From positions 1 through 39,231 of IMG/VR virus record IMGVR_UViG_3300012971_000036: a DNA stretch of 39,231 nucleotides; one strand, 5' to 3'. Source of the DNA: a virus (Duplodnaviria > Caudoviricetes). Made by a program: the position numbers and the translations under genes. Within the stretch, counting starts at the first letter, position 1, and each line of letters begins with the position of its first letter. Of the stretch, positions 1 to 18,299 are shown one piece after another. The notes below the pieces were generated by a model, which searched no databases, was not told the DNA's origin, and worked only from the letters and a program-made list of their open reading frames with translations.

Positions 1-732
1 CAGTGGCAGAAGTCGCTGAAGGTGACCGACGAGAAGGTGCGCGAGGCCATCCAGAACGCCTGCCGCATCATCAAGCCCGTCGAGCGCTATTACTACAACG
101 TCGTCGTCCGCGAGTACGTCAACCCGAAGACCAACAAGCTGGAGAAGAACGTCGGGCCGCTCATCTTCTCGTGCGGCAAGACGGTCCACGCCATGATAAT
201 GACGGCCATCGTGGGTGACGTGAAGGCCGGCAAGAAGCGCAAGGGCGATATTACCGACCCGAAGGAAGGCCGCGACTTCCGCCTGGTCAAGAAGACCGTG
301 CGTGGGGCCGGTGGCTTCGAGTACCCCGGCTACGAGGGCAGTGAGTTCGAGGAGCCGTCGCCAGCCGGCACCCAGGAAGAACTGGAGAAGTGGCTGGAGA
401 ACCTGCACGACTTGACCACGCTTCGCAAGGTCAAGGACTTCGCCACCCTGGACCGCGCCCTCAAGGTCCACAACGGCGTGCTGGAACCGGACGACGAGGA
501 GTTCGACACCAGCGTGTACGAGCGCGGCGGCGACCCCGACAGCGACGACGACGGCACCGGCGGCGCACCAGTGCCGGCGACCCGCAAGCCGCAAGGTCCG
601 GGCGGCGGGGCAGAGAAGCCCATCGCCAAGCAGGAGAAGAAGGACTCGTCCAAGGCCAAGGCGGCTGAGGAGGAGATCATGGCGGACCCGGAGTTCATGG
701 CCGAACTCGACGCCCTCGAAACCGAGAAATGA
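1..732 (+). CDS. T4 gp32-like single-stranded DNA-binding protein (5' truncated by window)
   Basis: Frame is open from base 1. Contains RYYYNVVVR, GDITDPKEGRDFRLVKK and YEGSEF motifs plus an acidic C-terminal tail, and lies upstream of a UvsX/RecA gene. Confidence 0.8.
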   Translation, partial: QWQKSLKVTDEKVREAIQNACRIIKPVERYYYNVVVREYVNPKTNKLEKNVGPLIFSCGKTVHAMIMTAIVGDVKAGKKRKGDITDPKEGRDFRLVKKTVRGAGGFEYPGYEGSEFEEPSPAGTQEELEKWLENLHDLTTLRKVKDFATLDRALKVHNGVLEPDDEEFDTSVYERGGDPDSDDDGTGGAPVPATRKPQGPGGGAEKPIAKQEKKDSSKAKAAEEEIMADPEFMAELDALETEK

Positions 733-743
733 TCTCAATGGTT

Positions 744-783
744 CAGGCGGCACCCTTAGCCCCCGCGTTAAGGGTGCCGCCTG
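744..783 (+). terminator. 15-bp perfect hairpin after SSB gene
   Basis: caggcggcaccctta (744-758) pairs with taagggtgccgcctg (769-783). No long U tail. Confidence 0.6.
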
Positions 784-796
784 GATATATACCCCC

Positions 797-1090
797 ATGT
801 TAATCTCGACGGAACGAGAACTGGTTGCCCTGCGGAGCAGTTTGTGGCGGGGGCCGAATGCCTGGGGCATCCGGGACGGCTACCGCCTTTCCTTGGCCGA
901 AGCAATAGCCAATACCGAATATGGCTGACCAGCAGTGCGGTTAGCGGAGTTCCGCTACGAGTTGACAGAGGGTGGTGTAATATGTGCCCTGCGGGATATT
1001 TGTGAGCATTTCCACGGGGTAACGGGGGAGAGCTACCGCAAGAACGGCCTCGGCCCCCAGGCGACAGCACAAGTATTCAACCTTCCCTAG
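797..1090 (+). CDS. 97-aa hypothetical protein with one in-frame TGA (926-928); candidate selenoprotein or readthrough gene
   Basis: ATG797 to TAG1090 is open except for the TGA at codon 44: MLISTERELVALRSSLWRGPNAWGIRDGYRLSLAEAIANTEYG*PAVRLAEFRYELTEGGVICALRDICEHFHGVTGESYRKNGLGPQATAQVFNLP. It fills the SSB-recA gap and is preceded by ATATATA (785-791). Confidence 0.6.
938..959 (+). promoter_or_regulatory. bacterial SECIS-like hairpin 3' of in-frame UGA
   Basis: cGGU-UAGCGGA-GU-UCCGCUA-Cg has a bulged U and an apical GU, similar to E. coli fdhF GGU-UGCAG-GU-CUGCA-CC. Confidence 0.45.
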
Positions 1091-1139
1091 CACTTACCCA
1101 TTCCACACTCCAGTGCAAAGGAGAAAATATGGAGCAATC

Positions 1140-2351
1140 ATGACCAAAAAGACCCGGAGTGACGACGATCTGTTTCAGGACTTGGCGGCGGCAACGGGCG
1201 GCGAAGTCCTCGGTGAAATTGACACCGTTGCTTATTTCGTGGACACCGGCAACCTGGCCCTCAACTATGCCTGCTCTGGTAAGTTTATCGGCGGCGGTCT
1301 GCCCGGTGGGCGTCTGACGGAAATCTACGGCCCCTCTGCCTCCAGCAAATCTCTCATCGGCACCAACGTCCTGTTCGGCTGCCAGCGCATCAACGGCGTG
1401 CCCATCATCCTCGACACCGAGAACGCAGTGAACAAGGACTTCGTGCAACGGGCGAGCCACTGCAACCTGGCCCAGATCGTCCGCTACACCCCGCAAACTC
1501 TGGAAACCACCTTCGCCAAAATATACAAGGCTGTGGAACACATCCGCAGCCACGCCAAGTACAAAGATTCACCAATTGTCATCGTGTTCGATTCGATCAC
1601 GGTATGCCCGTCTGAGCGTGAACTGCGCGAGATTGATTTGCCGGAGAACTACACCGAGGCCGACTTCAAGCGGATTGTCAAGCAGCACGAGCAACCCGGC
1701 GAACGTGCCCGCATCTGCTCCCGCGAGTTCCGCAAGCTCAACACCGTCATGGAAAAGACGGGGGTGACGGTGGTTATCATGAACCAAATCCGCAAGAAGA
1801 TTGGGGTCATGTACGGTCCCGACACCACCACCGGCGGGGGCGGCATGGCCCTTCCCTTCTACGCCAGTTGCCGCCTGGAAACGCGGACCACGAAGAAGAT
1901 TGAGCGCAACCTGACCGCCAAGCGGAAGAAGGTGCTGGGCGTCCACGTCACCATCAAGAACGTGAAGAACCGGACGTATCGCCCCTTCGTCCAGGCCGAC
2001 GATGTGCCCCTGTTTTTCGAGTCCGGTATCAACCCGGTGGGTGGCCTGCTGACCGCGTTATTGGACGCGGAGCGGATCGACGGCAAGGGCGGGAATTACT
2101 TCGTCAAGGAACCCTGGGCCGGAGGCCAGGAGGTCAAGTTCAAGTCCAGCATGGAGCGTAACGAGGTGCCGATGGAAGTGGTTCTGAAGTGCCCGGCGCT
2201 GATCGACGCCAAGGACGAGCGGCAGATCAAGGATTACTTGGAGCCGTTCACCGGAGCAATGACCTACCAGCCTGCCGGCGACGTGCAGGAGACGGATGTG
2301 GGTGAGGACGACGAGGCCACCGACCTGGAGATTGATGAACAGCTTTCGTGA
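1140..2351 (+). CDS. uvsX: RecA/UvsX-like recombinase
   Basis: Motifs DTGNLALN, GGGLPGGRLTEIYGPSASSKS (Walker A), IVFDS, NQIR, GGMALPFYAS and VKNR. GGAG precedes ATG1140. Confidence 0.9.
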   Translation: MTKKTRSDDDLFQDLAAATGGEVLGEIDTVAYFVDTGNLALNYACSGKFIGGGLPGGRLTEIYGPSASSKSLIGTNVLFGCQRINGVPIILDTENAVNKDFVQRASHCNLAQIVRYTPQTLETTFAKIYKAVEHIRSHAKYKDSPIVIVFDSITVCPSERELREIDLPENYTEADFKRIVKQHEQPGERARICSREFRKLNTVMEKTGVTVVIMNQIRKKIGVMYGPDTTTGGGGMALPFYASCRLETRTTKKIERNLTAKRKKVLGVHVTIKNVKNRTYRPFVQADDVPLFFESGINPVGGLLTALLDAERIDGKGGNYFVKEPWAGGQEVKFKSSMERNEVPMEVVLKCPALIDAKDERQIKDYLEPFTGAMTYQPAGDVQETDVGEDDEATDLEIDEQLS

Positions 2352-7719: not shown

Positions 7720-9753
7720 ATGCCGCCCGTCACCAAGGCCCAGGACCAGCCGGTGCTGGTGGAGAGCAAGGCTTACCCCCACGCCCGATGGGGGTTCCAA
7801 ACTTTCAACCCCGTCCAGTCGCGGGTGTACGAGTTTTATAATCACGACACCAACGGCCTGATCGCGGCAGCTACCTCCGCAGGCAAGACCGTCTGCGCCG
7901 AAATGTTCCTCGCCCATGAAATCCGGGTGCGAGGGGGCAAAGGGATGTTCCTCGGCCCCCTCAAGGCCCTCACCCAAGAAAAAATAGACGACTGGACCGA
8001 CCCCGACAATCACTTCCACGACAAGAAGGTGGCGATTTGCACCGGCGACTACCGCCTCACCAATGAGCGCCGCAAGGAGTTCGAGCAGGCCGACCTCATC
8101 ATCATGACTTCGGAAATGCTCAACCACCGCTCGCGCAACTTCAAAAGCGAGCAGAACCAGTGGATGCTCGACGTGGGCACCCTCGTGGTCGATGAGTCCC
8201 ACCTGCTGACCGTTCCCCGTCGCGGCGACCACTTGGAAGTGGGACTGATGAAGTTCACGGACATCAACCCCAAGGCCCGCGTCGTCATGTTGTCGGCCAC
8301 CATGCCCAACGTGGAGGAGATTGGCGAATGGGTCAGCTACGCCCTTACCAAGCGTGACACGTTCGTGTTGCGCAGCACTTACCGCCCCTGCCCGCTTTCA
8401 ATCCACTATGAAAAGGTCTGGGACCAGGCGGGCAGCTACTTTGCCAACGAGGAAGAAAAGGTCGGCTACGCCCTGGACATCGTGGATTACTACCCCGACG
8501 ACAAGTTCCTGATTTTTACGCATACCATCGACACCGGCTACATGATGACCAAGGCGCTTCAGGAGGCCGGAATCCTGGCCGAATTCCACTGCTCCCTGCT
8601 GGACAAACAGGAGCGGGTGTCCCTGGAACACCGCTTCCGCACCGATCCCGAATTGCGCTGCGTGGTAGCGACCAGTACGTTGGCCTGGGGCCTGAACTTG
8701 CCGGCCCGCCGCGTGATTATATTGGGCATCACTCGCGGCTTCGATATTGTTGAGTCCTACAACATCGCCCAGATGGTCGGACGGGCGGGACGCCCCGGCT
8801 TCGACCCGATGGGGGACGCTTATATTCTGCTGCCGGAACGCACCTTCGATATGCACAAGGAGCGGCTGAAGAAGCCGGAGCCGATCAAAAGCCACCTGCT
8901 CGATGAAAGTCCTGGCGGCAAATACAAGACCTTGGCATTTCATTTGGTGAGTGAAATTCATCACGGCGACGTGCAGGACGCGGACGACGTTCACCACTGG
9001 TTCGGGCGGTCCCTGGCCCACTTCCAGAAGGACACGCTGGCTGATGCAATGGTGGACAAGACGCTGGACGATCTGAAGAAGTGTTACGCCATCAAGGAGG
9101 AGGACGGTAAACTGAAGGCCACGGCGGTGGGCATGATCTCCAGCATGTTTTATATTTCGCCGTTTGACGTGAGCGACCTGCGCCGTAATTTCAAATATTT
9201 GTTCGAGGCCAACGAGCAGGGGGACGACATGGCGGTGGCCTGCGCCCTCGCCGCCATTGACAGTAACATGGTGGGCTTCGCCAACCGCCGCGAGAAGGAA
9301 GAAATGGCCCACTTCATGATCCAGTGGCGGCAGAAATATAGTGACCGCTACCCCGACCCGGTTATCAAGATGGCGTTTTGTTACCACGCCATGATGAACG
9401 GCCAGCATCACCACAAGGCGTGCGGGCCTACGATGCGCAACCTCCAGAGTGATTACGCCCGTCTGGGGCAGGTACTCCTCGCCCTGGACAGCATGACCGG
9501 GAAGTGGGGCCGGTTCAGTTGGTTCCGGGACTTGCACGCCCGCATCCAGCACGGGGTCAAGGCCCATCTGGTGCCCCTGGTGGGGCTGCCTGATATTGGC
9601 AAGGTTCGTGCCGCCAAACTGTACGAGGCGGGACTGAAGACGCTGGAGCAGATCGCGGAGCGGCCCGATTTGGTGAAGAAGGCGCTGGGGTGGAAGGACG
9701 CCAAGGTGCAGGAAGTGGTCGAGGCAGCCAAAGCCCAGCTACTTATTTCGTAA
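7720..9753 (+). CDS. Ski2/Hel308-like SF2 DExH helicase
   Basis: Q motif FNPVQ, ATSAGKT, PLKAL, DESH, LSATMPN, ATSTLAWGLNLPA and QMVGRAGRPGFD, plus C-terminal HhH LPDIGKVRAAKLYEAG. Confidence 0.9.
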   Translation: MPPVTKAQDQPVLVESKAYPHARWGFQTFNPVQSRVYEFYNHDTNGLIAAATSAGKTVCAEMFLAHEIRVRGGKGMFLGPLKALTQEKIDDWTDPDNHFHDKKVAICTGDYRLTNERRKEFEQADLIIMTSEMLNHRSRNFKSEQNQWMLDVGTLVVDESHLLTVPRRGDHLEVGLMKFTDINPKARVVMLSATMPNVEEIGEWVSYALTKRDTFVLRSTYRPCPLSIHYEKVWDQAGSYFANEEEKVGYALDIVDYYPDDKFLIFTHTIDTGYMMTKALQEAGILAEFHCSLLDKQERVSLEHRFRTDPELRCVVATSTLAWGLNLPARRVIILGITRGFDIVESYNIAQMVGRAGRPGFDPMGDAYILLPERTFDMHKERLKKPEPIKSHLLDESPGGKYKTLAFHLVSEIHHGDVQDADDVHHWFGRSLAHFQKDTLADAMVDKTLDDLKKCYAIKEEDGKLKATAVGMISSMFYISPFDVSDLRRNFKYLFEANEQGDDMAVACALAAIDSNMVGFANRREKEEMAHFMIQWRQKYSDRYPDPVIKMAFCYHAMMNGQHHHKACGPTMRNLQSDYARLGQVLLALDSMTGKWGRFSWFRDLHARIQHGVKAHLVPLVGLPDIGKVRAAKLYEAGLKTLEQIAERPDLVKKALGWKDAKVQEVVEAAKAQLLIS

Positions 9754-16319: not shown

Positions 16320-18299
16320 ATGCGCATACTGAAGGCTCCCAAGGTGTATCTGATCGCCCGCCCCCAGATTGTGAAGGAAGGGCTGGCCCAATTCCTCGAA
16401 GACCAGAAACTCGATTGGCCTACACCAACGGACGGGGTGACGGCGGCGGAACAACTGGTGGAGGCGGCAGGCCGGTGCTGTTATATGTCCTTCGGAAAGA
16501 AGGCGGGTAGCAAAACCAACTGGCGTTATATTCAAAACCTCCTGGGCCGCAACCCGGACGGATCGTGGAAGCCCGGCCCCGCCCACGGGTCGGTCACGGA
16601 GCATCCATGCTGGAGCTTCCTGGTCGTCGGGGCCGGGCGGGGCTTCTGTTATGATTCCGAAACTGAGGTCTTGACCGAGGAGGGCTGGAAGCGCTGGCCG
16701 GATATAACGGGGCAGGAGTCTTTCGCAACTCTCAACTTGGCGACGGATGAACTCGAATATCAGCGTGCCACTGCGATTACGCAGGAGCGTTGGGACGGGC
16801 CGATGTACCAATTGAAGTCTAAAATGGTGGACCTCCTAGTAACGCCAAACCATCGGATGCTGCATTTTCCCTACGACGTTCGCAAAAATAAAGCTTGGCG
16901 GATCGGTCCAGCCGTGGACATATTGGGCAAGCGAGTGAAATATAAACGGAATGCCCAATGGATTGGTTCGGACCCAGAACATTTTGAAATTCCATCGGTT
17001 GTAAGCACCCAATCCGTTAGCAATAAGTACGGTGCTAACTACTCCGAACGTAAACACTTATGCCCTGGGTGCAGTTTGCCCGCAAAGGCTTTTGCTACGT
17101 TCTTGGGCTATTGGTTGGCAGAGGGGCATCTCGACCATTGTGAGGGCGGCGGGTATTTTTTGGTTTTGAGTCAAAACGACGACAGCCCGCACTTGCCGGC
17201 CATGCGGGCGTGCATCGAGGCAATGGGATTGACCTATAGCATTGGACGGACAGGGCGATCCAATTGCTTGCGCCTTCGGGTAAACGGGGGACGGGCGTTT
17301 TACGAGTATCTTAAACCCTACAGCACTGCTTTGGGCAAACGAGTTCCCCCCGAATGCAAAAAATGGTCGCCCTCGCTCCTGCGTTGTATTATCGAAGCTC
17401 ATCTCGCTGGTGACGGATCGTTCCCGATTCGCAGCATGGGGGAGGCAAACACCGTCAGTAAGGCACTTGCCGATGATCTTCAGGAATTGGCTTTGAAATG
17501 TGGTATATCCGCCACCATTCGTACAGTGAATCGGCGTTCCGAAATACGTTATTGGCGGGGTGCCCGAATGAAGAACAATCACGTTGGTTATGTCGTTTCC
17601 TATTGTGCGAAGCGGAACACCCCGTTGGTCAACCATAATGGCAAACGGCATGATTCCTTGGTAGATTACAACGGCATGGTATATTGTGTTAGTGTGCCAA
17701 ATGGACTGCTGTATGTTCGCCGTAATGGGCGTCCGGTTTGGTCCGGGAATTCCCATGAACAGGTTCGACATCGTACTGGTTGGGCTTATTCCCAGCTAAG
17801 TACCCGTTACTGCGACTTCGAGCGCGAAGAAGAGGAAGGCACCTGGGAACCGGGTTTCTGTATCCCGACCCTGGCGTTGCTGAGTCCTGATACCGCCGCC
17901 ACCTTCGCCGCCCGTTTACAACACAGCCAGCAGTTCTACGTCGAAGTCCTCCACCAGATCGAGGAGGACTTGCGGGCCAATTCCGCCTTCATGGAAAGTC
18001 TCCAGAAATATGATGAAAAGGAACGTTCCCGCATGATGCGCAAGGCCGCTCGCGGTGCGGCCCGTGACCTGCTGCCCATCGCCACCGAGGCGATCATGGT
18101 GATGAGCGCGAATGCGCGGGCGTTGTGGAACTGCATTGTCTTGCGGGCCAACGAACACGCCGAGGCCGTGATCCGCGAAGTGTATGTCCAAATCGCCAAG
18201 ATCATGGAAAAGGAAATGCCGGCCCTGTTCAACGGATTGAAGTACGAAACGTGTTGGGATGGCACCGAGGCGGTGGTTATGCCCCGCGATAAACTATGA
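16320..18299 (+). CDS. thyX: flavin-dependent thymidylate synthase ThyX with intein
   Basis: Motifs EAAGRCCYMS, HGSVTEH, SHEQVRHRTGWAYSQLSTRY, ARDLLP, NARAL and HAEAVIR. Confidence 0.92.
   Translation: MRILKAPKVYLIARPQIVKEGLAQFLEDQKLDWPTPTDGVTAAEQLVEAAGRCCYMSFGKKAGSKTNWRYIQNLLGRNPDGSWKPGPAHGSVTEHPCWSFLVVGAGRGFCYDSETEVLTEEGWKRWPDITGQESFATLNLATDELEYQRATAITQERWDGPMYQLKSKMVDLLVTPNHRMLHFPYDVRKNKAWRIGPAVDILGKRVKYKRNAQWIGSDPEHFEIPSVVSTQSVSNKYGANYSERKHLCPGCSLPAKAFATFLGYWLAEGHLDHCEGGGYFLVLSQNDDSPHLPAMRACIEAMGLTYSIGRTGRSNCLRLRVNGGRAFYEYLKPYSTALGKRVPPECKKWSPSLLRCIIEAHLAGDGSFPIRSMGEANTVSKALADDLQELALKCGISATIRTVNRRSEIRYWRGARMKNNHVGYVVSYCAKRNTPLVNHNGKRHDSLVDYNGMVYCVSVPNGLLYVRRNGRPVWSGNSHEQVRHRTGWAYSQLSTRYCDFEREEEEGTWEPGFCIPTLALLSPDTAATFAARLQHSQQFYVEVLHQIEEDLRANSAFMESLQKYDEKERSRMMRKAARGAARDLLPIATEAIMVMSANARALWNCIVLRANEHAEAVIREVYVQIAKIMEKEMPALFNGLKYETCWDGTEAVVMPRDKL
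16647..17750 (+). mobile_element. 368-aa intein with LAGLIDADG homing endonuclease
   Basis: N-terminus CYDSETEVLT..GWK, block B VTPNH, FLGYWLAEG and IEAHLAGDG. C-terminus VYCVSVPNGLLYVRRNGRPVWSGN|S. Visibly more AT-rich codons than the exteins. Confidence 0.93.

Follow-up and report, generated by a model that had tools for sequence, protein, structure and literature searches.

The SECIS of Escherichia coli fdhF presents a bulged U17 and an apical G23/U24 that are bound by SelB, and SelB–SECIS pairs can be species-specific. In phage Q-beta, the coat/A1 gene is subject to leaky UGA read-through. According to the available text of one account, bacterial decoding by SelB and Sec-tRNA proceeds in competition with termination, and read-through is promoted both by downstream (3') structures and by a C at +4, UGA-C being a leaky-stop context (PMC7026636). 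The legend to Fig. 2A of a catalogue from 2026, which covers 119 families of prokaryotic selenoproteins, gives a rule for bacterial elements (bSECIS), namely a loop of 3–9 nt, a stem of 4–16 bp, a spacing of 16–37 nt and an MFE of −7.5 or lower, and further demands that one of the first two loop nucleotides be G (PMC13188914); an apical-G criterion also appears in the accessible part of PMC13582414. The words ‘phage’ and ‘virus’ are absent from the portion of the catalogue available to us. Among viruses, the selenoproteins named in the accessible text of PMC8310308 are the glutathione peroxidases of molluscum contagiosum and fowlpox viruses, and an excerpt of PMC6145125 gives a predicted tRNA-Sec gene in Basilisk-like Bacillus phages. 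No phage-encoded selenoprotein was found in the literature searched, with bioRxiv supplements and most subscription journals outside its reach.

Here, we consider a stretch of 39,231 nucleotides of Caudoviricetes DNA (IMG/VR record IMGVR_UViG_3300012971_000036), which in its entirety is called the window below. Judging from comparative sequence data, the gene in its ssb–recA gap is probably a host-dependent phage selenoprotein, with UGA44 decoded as Sec. The locus is composed as follows:

1–732, + strand: upstream neighbour ssb (single-stranded DNA binding protein; phrog_224, E 3e-14), its 5' end cut by the contig
741–786, + strand: 20-bp hairpin after ssb (z −6.6), likely a terminator or processing site
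785–791, + strand: ATATATA motif, probably an element of the promoter −10 type
797–1090, + strand: read-through gene, 97 aa with UGA as a residue, the founding member of a phage family
926–928, + strand: in-frame TGA, codon 44, candidate selenocysteine (TGA in 9/9 DNA copies, Cys in the protein P0024)
929–931, + strand: invariant Pro45 codon (CCN; 9/9 copies), which supplies the UGA-C context
1140–2351, + strand: downstream neighbour, UvsX/RecA-like recombinase (phrog_97, E 2e-49)

The gap between ssb and recA is one 98-codon frame from ATG797 to TAG1090, and its sole internal stop is TGA926–928, in the context EYG*PAV. The first-pass annotation had described a single frame broken only by TGA926, and the ORF reading of 797–1090 bears this out. 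It had also remarked that the ATATATA motif is shared with other genes; the window indeed has six copies (785, 4021, 4520, 12236, 14049 and 14068), each followed within about 30 nt by an ATG on the + strand, and the motif is a candidate phage promoter element. In L002, the nearest phage that lacks the gene (RecA 87% identical), the ssb–recA gap is ~120 nt, the extra sequence of the window matches the read-through ORF almost end to end, and ATATATA is missing at the corresponding place. A profile search of the L002 record (343 kb, 69% complete) found no copy of the gene. A hairpin with a different sequence follows ssb in L002 too (about 2890–2933), in the same place as that at 741–786 of the window. 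An Rfam scan of window positions 600–1300 returned six matches, none at the gathering score, and no RNA dataset is among the sequencing runs listed for the sequence. Elsewhere in the window, a 659-aa thymidylate synthase-like ORF (16320–18299) has PHROG matches in separate blocks, which suggests an insertion such as an intein.

That TGA otherwise serves as a normal stop, as had been claimed, is evident from the two neighbours, ssb (732) and recA (2351), which both end in it. It terminates 22 of the 45 window ORFs of at least 150 aa (shadow ORFs included), and among long ORFs it is the most frequent stop in each of the five records counted; hence, recoding at codon 44 would be local. A member of the family itself, the L008 copy, terminates with TGA, and with ssb and recA ending likewise, genome-wide UGA reassignment (code 4 or 25) was rejected.

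We compared nine distinct DNA copies from eight records: the window, six IMG/VR contigs (14–262 kb) and two paralogs from LR756511.1, which is probably the 595-kb phage given as complete, circular and curated in Table S1 of PMC7162821. All nine have TGA followed by a Pro codon (CCN) at codon 44, at pairwise identities of 35–56%. After the stop, frame 0 is open for 40 codons in every copy (mean identity 0.50), and most copies have stop codons in both shifted frames. At the three codon positions, nucleotide identity is 0.58/0.70/0.32, third positions being near saturation. The frame 797–1090 is a real gene, and coding selection acts both before and after the stop. The protein databases tell of the same boundary: a phmmer search over 1.8 billion representative proteins gave 11 matches, comprising six N-halves ending at Gly43, four C-halves starting at 47–49 and one repeat artefact, and all 15 matches to an N-half profile (protein records only, with proteins of up to 105 aa eligible) end exactly at Gly43. 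A word-seeded search of proteins, with the read-through protein alone as query, found no match. The first-pass annotation had held that homologs with TGA plus hairpin, or with Cys, at codon 44 would favour Sec, and that absence of coding conservation across the TGA would count against it; homologs of the former kind were found (9/9 DNA copies and P0024), and both sides are conserved in 9/9.

The TGA at 926–928 is also no assembly error, a concern raised at the outset, as it recurs in other contigs. It is unchanged in a 99.9% identical IMG/VR contig and in contigs of runs X2, X5 and X7, of which X2 and X5 may be the source sample. In a diverged sibling from run X1, 29 differences are listed, 23 of them at third positions (20 synonymous; seven changed codons), with none listed at 926–928. 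There is one difference in 935–967 versus 22 listed in 797–934, which is weak support for conservation of the hairpin stretch.

The UGA44 genes form a family of small genes of large uncultured phages that appears to be new to the literature. The gene occupies the same ssb–recA slot in L012 and lies just after recA in L009 and L011; the other five copies are elsewhere. Long, unconserved C-terminal tails extend past the conserved domain in three copies (L009:4162-4324, L010:4162-4342 and L011:4162-4432), the products of which are 151–187 aa in all. One LR756511.1 paralog (L049; LR756511.1:436347-436640) is situated within a tRNA array, the genes of which are for Ser, Leu and Tyr. The L008 copy (also L029) is on a 33.6-kb contig present in both a GTDB Parcubacteria MAG and the IMG/VR viral set, likely a mis-binned phage fragment. 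In two DNA copies of the same subfamily, IscA/HesB-like ORFs (L047:2485-2820 and L022:9365-9703) lie 1–3.5 kb from the gene; from their GGCSG motif, we take these to be Fe-S assembly proteins.

What occupies position 44 in the exceptional sense forms is informative. A full-length profile search recovered seven matches, two of them whole (P0024 and P0025). P0024, the only Cys form (a protein record only, from a 944-nt contig), has Cys at position 44; it shares 80% identity with L047, one of the UGA copies of LR756511.1, with which it pairs as sister within the UGA clade (support 99/97), and thus reads as a Sec-to-Cys change. The UGA form is far commoner in the family than the Cys form. P0025 (539-nt contig, again a protein record only) has Trp at this position. 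P0033 and P0034, which also have Trp, fall in clusters that include the identical stop-ended halves P0016 and P0015, respectively; hence, their Trp is most likely TGA read under code 4 by the gene caller, and the Trp of P0025 may be the same artefact. The conserved motif around codon 44 is [YF]-G-U-P (Gly-Sec-Pro) with no partner Cys: the family has no conserved second Cys, and alignment A8 has no conserved Cys, Thr or Ser three residues from position 44 as in CxxU or UxxC/T/S. A JGI metagenome scan used a pattern that spanned Cys44 and was blind to UGA copies; its sole weak match among 63 stretches (L023; 33%, no N-half) was dropped as chance. From the protein matches, P0009, a low-complexity repeat, and P0032, an unrelated 690-aa cluster member, were dropped too.

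Two RNA structures have been proposed around the stop:

942–957, + strand: SECIS-like hairpin, a 6-bp stem (942–947/952–957) with loop AGUU (948–951) and G949–U950 at the apex
924–945, + strand: alternative helix pairing the UGA (924–930/939–945), in the window only

The hairpin drawn in the first-pass annotation is present, but its 2-nt loop is not physical, the loop being AGUU. It starts 14 nt after the UGA, with a spacing of 19 nt and a stability of about −8.6 to −8.9 kcal/mol, and a G940–C958 pair with U941 unpaired can extend it. An fdhF-like bulged U, likewise asserted there, is not conserved: U is found at +13 in four of the nine copies and is paired in at least one of these. The window hairpin alone is ordinary against dinucleotide shuffles (z −0.89), and its weight accordingly derives from conservation rather than from the stability of a single sequence. 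G at +21 and U at +22 occur in 7/9 copies. In the nine-copy alignment, a seven-pair helix around the loop at +20 to +23 has 68% of its cells paired and two-sided changes in five of its seven pairs; its covariation is 0.425 versus 0.189 in shuffles (0/500 as high), and six slid controls range over 0.06–0.20 (all at most 0.198). The closing pair follows the amino-acid changes at codons 51–52, with four pair types and 8/9 copies paired. When synonymous codons were resampled, 8/9 copies folded better than the null (p 0.007–0.125; L049 0.56), the combined Fisher p of ~5e-6 being optimistic because the loop position was chosen after the sequences were inspected. RNAalifold found no consensus hairpin at the site across the nine copies, since the hairpin registers shift between them. 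The other proposal, a switch that sequesters the UGA, was rejected: its fold is the MFE structure in the window, with a probability of 0.53, and falls to at most 0.04 in each of the other eight copies, being private to the window.

Under the bSECIS rule the window passes (loop AGUU, 6 bp, spacing 19, −8.9 kcal/mol), and applied strictly at the main hairpin, the rule admits three of the nine copies (the window, L009 and L049, the hairpin of the last being displaced 5 nt downstream). L010 and L047 miss the energy limit only, and the L007 loop, AACU, has no G. L008, L011 and L012 fold in other registers; L011 passes only via another hairpin, while L008 and L012 fail. As for specificity, a relaxed SECIS rule passes 23/196 ordinary TGA stops, and with the spacing restricted to 18–20 it passes 4/9 family copies versus 4/196 ordinary stops. 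The UGA genes of Planctomycetia were scored in the same manner, leaving out rows L115 and L122 as false hits of the pattern (L105 was not caught). All seven scored genes of the formate-dehydrogenase type have a 6–7 bp stem, a GGUCU loop and a spacing of 18, one base nearer than the 19 of the phage hairpin; the G rule excludes two of the four selD UGA genes, and failing it therefore does not disqualify a true Sec gene.

The read-through protein is predicted to form a single compact domain (pLDDT 93.9, pTM 0.85), mostly helical with one small hairpin. The N-half modelled alone gives pLDDT 73.6 and pTM 0.43, a gap in pTM that is partly an effect of method because its alignment is shallower (8 vs 22 rows). 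Position 44 is placed at the N-terminal end of a helix (45–52) in the model. Sequence comparisons with Pfam, NCBIfam, PHROGs and PDB yielded no family match; Foldseek returned none at E 0.001 in PDB or BFVD, and the fold search listings contain no thioredoxin-like family. The best VIA match, to the helical C-terminal portion of glutamyl-tRNA synthetase (Z 4.5, rmsd 3.1, 73 aligned), was set aside, its score being below the level that means more than a common arrangement. The modelled product thus appears to be without a known fold, such searches not amounting to proof of a new one. No cellular homolog was found in 401 Planctomycetota genomes (0/401). A GTDB pattern scan gave 15 matches, of which 14 were dropped as chance and the one real one was the phage contig L008; a plasmid search gave one weak, unrelated match.

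The first-pass annotation had pointed to selA, selB, selC and selD, in phage or host, as bearing on the question. selA, selB and selD each score over the cut-off in 0/5 phage records, LR756511.1 alone among them being complete, and no true tRNA-Sec was found in eight. The sole tRNA-Sec match over the cut-off in the eight (in G002) is a tRNA-Ser with the TGA anticodon, and a selB match in the phage record G004 is EF-Tu. The machinery would therefore have to be the host's. The G004 EF-Tu (L093:1480-2658) has its best full-length matches in 10 Planctomycetia genomes (530–578 bits), against 458–523 bits in seven genomes of other groups, on which basis Planctomycetia, the closest of the groups tried, is a likely host group for at least this member. 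Comparisons of the CCA enzyme and IF-3 of the window's phage singled out no host group, and the accessible Table S4 of PMC7162821 settles no host for the 595-kb phage. Within Planctomycetia, selA is over the cut-off in 61/121 genomes and selD is present in 15/15 selA-positive genomes tested; full Sec gene sets in four planctomycetes are given in the available text of PMC4807772.

Certain tRNA genes of these phages are noteworthy in themselves. A tRNA array of G004 includes a 111-nt tRNA-like gene (L069:2192-2302; G004:C1:41992-42102) with normal acceptor and T arms, a G before the 3' end, and a greatly extended middle arm with UCA in its capping loop. It scores 23.7 bits versus a tRNA-Sec cut-off of 47, and was not found whole in five other records, where only its 3' T-arm end matches. 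G001, a phage with the UGA gene, has two CUA-anticodon (amber-reading) tRNA genes (L072:8583-8655 and 8804-8876).

Together, these observations support the first-pass reading of site-specific Sec insertion or programmed read-through in a small protein of unfamiliar family, with Sec favoured. We propose that host SelB-GTP-Sec-tRNA would bind the apical loop (GU) 19 nt downstream and decode UGA44, in competition with termination; the host, likely a member of Planctomycetia for at least one phage, would provide SelA/B/C/D. Sec44 would then be the working residue, and when selenium or SelB is absent, a 43-aa fragment predicted to fold poorly would result. Should Sec be inserted, we give about an even chance to the single selenol at the helix N-terminus (Gly-Sec-Pro) being a nucleophile or a redox or metal site in a helper of DNA replication-recombination, a role suggested by the position of the gene in four of the nine copies. 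We also lean towards viewing the family as a giant-phage-only selenoprotein family with an undescribed fold, in which Sec is ancestral and Cys derived, dependent on host selenium and SelB.

Another account of the conserved UGA-C is programmed leaky read-through, whereby a near-cognate tRNA-Trp or tRNA-Cys would read UGA-C at a low rate, aided by the hairpin, and so set a low level of full-length protein. The context is present in 9/9 copies, but its C at +4 follows from the invariance of Pro45. The imperfect SECIS matches across copies and the lack of a redox partner residue also fit this account, as does the Trp at position 44 of P0025, although the Trp of P0033 and P0034 is most likely a code-4 artefact of the gene caller and the sole clear sense replacement is Cys. 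Moreover, the stop splits one predicted domain mid-way and adds no tail, and the apical GU is within one base of its position in the Planctomycetia SECIS. All considered, we judge leaky read-through, the chief alternative, unlikely. That a phage-encoded opal-reading tRNA decodes the UGA, inserting Ser or serving as a precursor for Sec, appears far less probable. The 111-nt tRNA-like gene of G004, with UCA in its terminal loop and EF-Tu encoded in the same phage, and the place of the L049 paralog within a tRNA array would suit it. However, that element falls well short of the cut-off and has an abnormal arm, no UCA tRNA was called in the sequence fetched for G001, G002 and G003, and a general suppressor would read many true TGA stops too; for LR756511.1, anticodons were read for part of the tRNA genes only.

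If the two halves, which gene callers annotate separately, were instead two small proteins of 43 aa and about 50 aa, the latter would have to arise by re-initiation after the stop. A GTG or TTG no more than six codons after it is available in 4/9 copies, but 5/9 are without such a start; Pro45, immediately after the stop, is invariant, no copy has a frameshift or a change of spacer, and a fused Cys form exists in P0024. We hold this to be slightly less credible even than the opal tRNA. As for a nonsense mutation in a dead gene, or a sequencing error, some relatives can do without the gene, no copy having been found in L002 at the locus or elsewhere in its 343-kb record. Yet the same stop has been kept with both halves conserved though third codon positions are near saturation, and it is found in both paralogs of the curated complete genome LR756511.1; this conservation refutes the dead-gene or error account, to which we assign practically no likelihood. 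Sec decoding at UGA44 hence stays our preferred reading.

If Sec decoding at UGA44 is indeed the case, phages evolve selenoproteins of their own and exploit host Sec decoding, a phage replication-recombination protein depends on the selenium supply and SelB of the host, and selenium chemistry works on a scaffold lacking any known redox motif. Such genes would also sit unseen in annotations as ‘intergenic’ or split ORFs. A split-UGA scan of five records gave 11 candidates, two of them the UGA44 family and the other nine mostly implausible frames; the scan is insensitive because it missed the family copies in G002, G003 and G004. In-frame TGAs with SECIS-like hairpins are seen at L078:14168 (+; context GYG-stop) in G001 and at L062:14574 (+; a very stable hairpin) in G002. 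Being small and having a Cys form in nature, the UGA44 family lends itself readily to testing.

How, then, does the family compare with the described systems? Like the Q-beta coat/A1 gene, it has a UGA within a phage gene, a stop codon elsewhere, and two possible products; unlike A1, UGA44 interrupts a single predicted domain, and no role is apparent for the short product. With the bacterial SelB/bSECIS genes, as represented in the available text of PMC13188914, it shares the in-frame UGA, a stem-loop 16–37 nt downstream in the coding sequence, a G in the first two loop positions (in the window) and a Cys-bearing homolog, and its geometry is within one base of the Planctomycetia version of the formate dehydrogenase alpha SECIS. 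In contrast to bacterial selenoprotein families, it is phage-encoded, with no cellular homolog found in the Planctomycetota genomes, and matches no entry of NCBIfam or Pfam, which, by the accessible portion of the same catalogue, define most of the 119 families. It also departs from the thiol-oxidoreductase selenoproteins, being without CxxU/UxxC and with a model not seen to match the thioredoxin fold. The Basilisk-like phages too link phages with Sec, but there the link is a tRNA prediction with no phage selenoprotein in the available excerpt (PMC6145125), whereas no convincing tRNA-Sec was found in the eight records with UGA44 genes. Finally, as with the poxvirus glutathione peroxidases described in the accessible text of PMC8310308, a virus gene would lean on the Sec machinery of its host, and as in the fowlpox enzyme, the SECIS lies inside the coding sequence; however, the poxvirus enzymes are captured eukaryotic proteins with a eukaryotic SECIS, whereas the phage family combines a fold without a known match with a putative element of the bacterial type.
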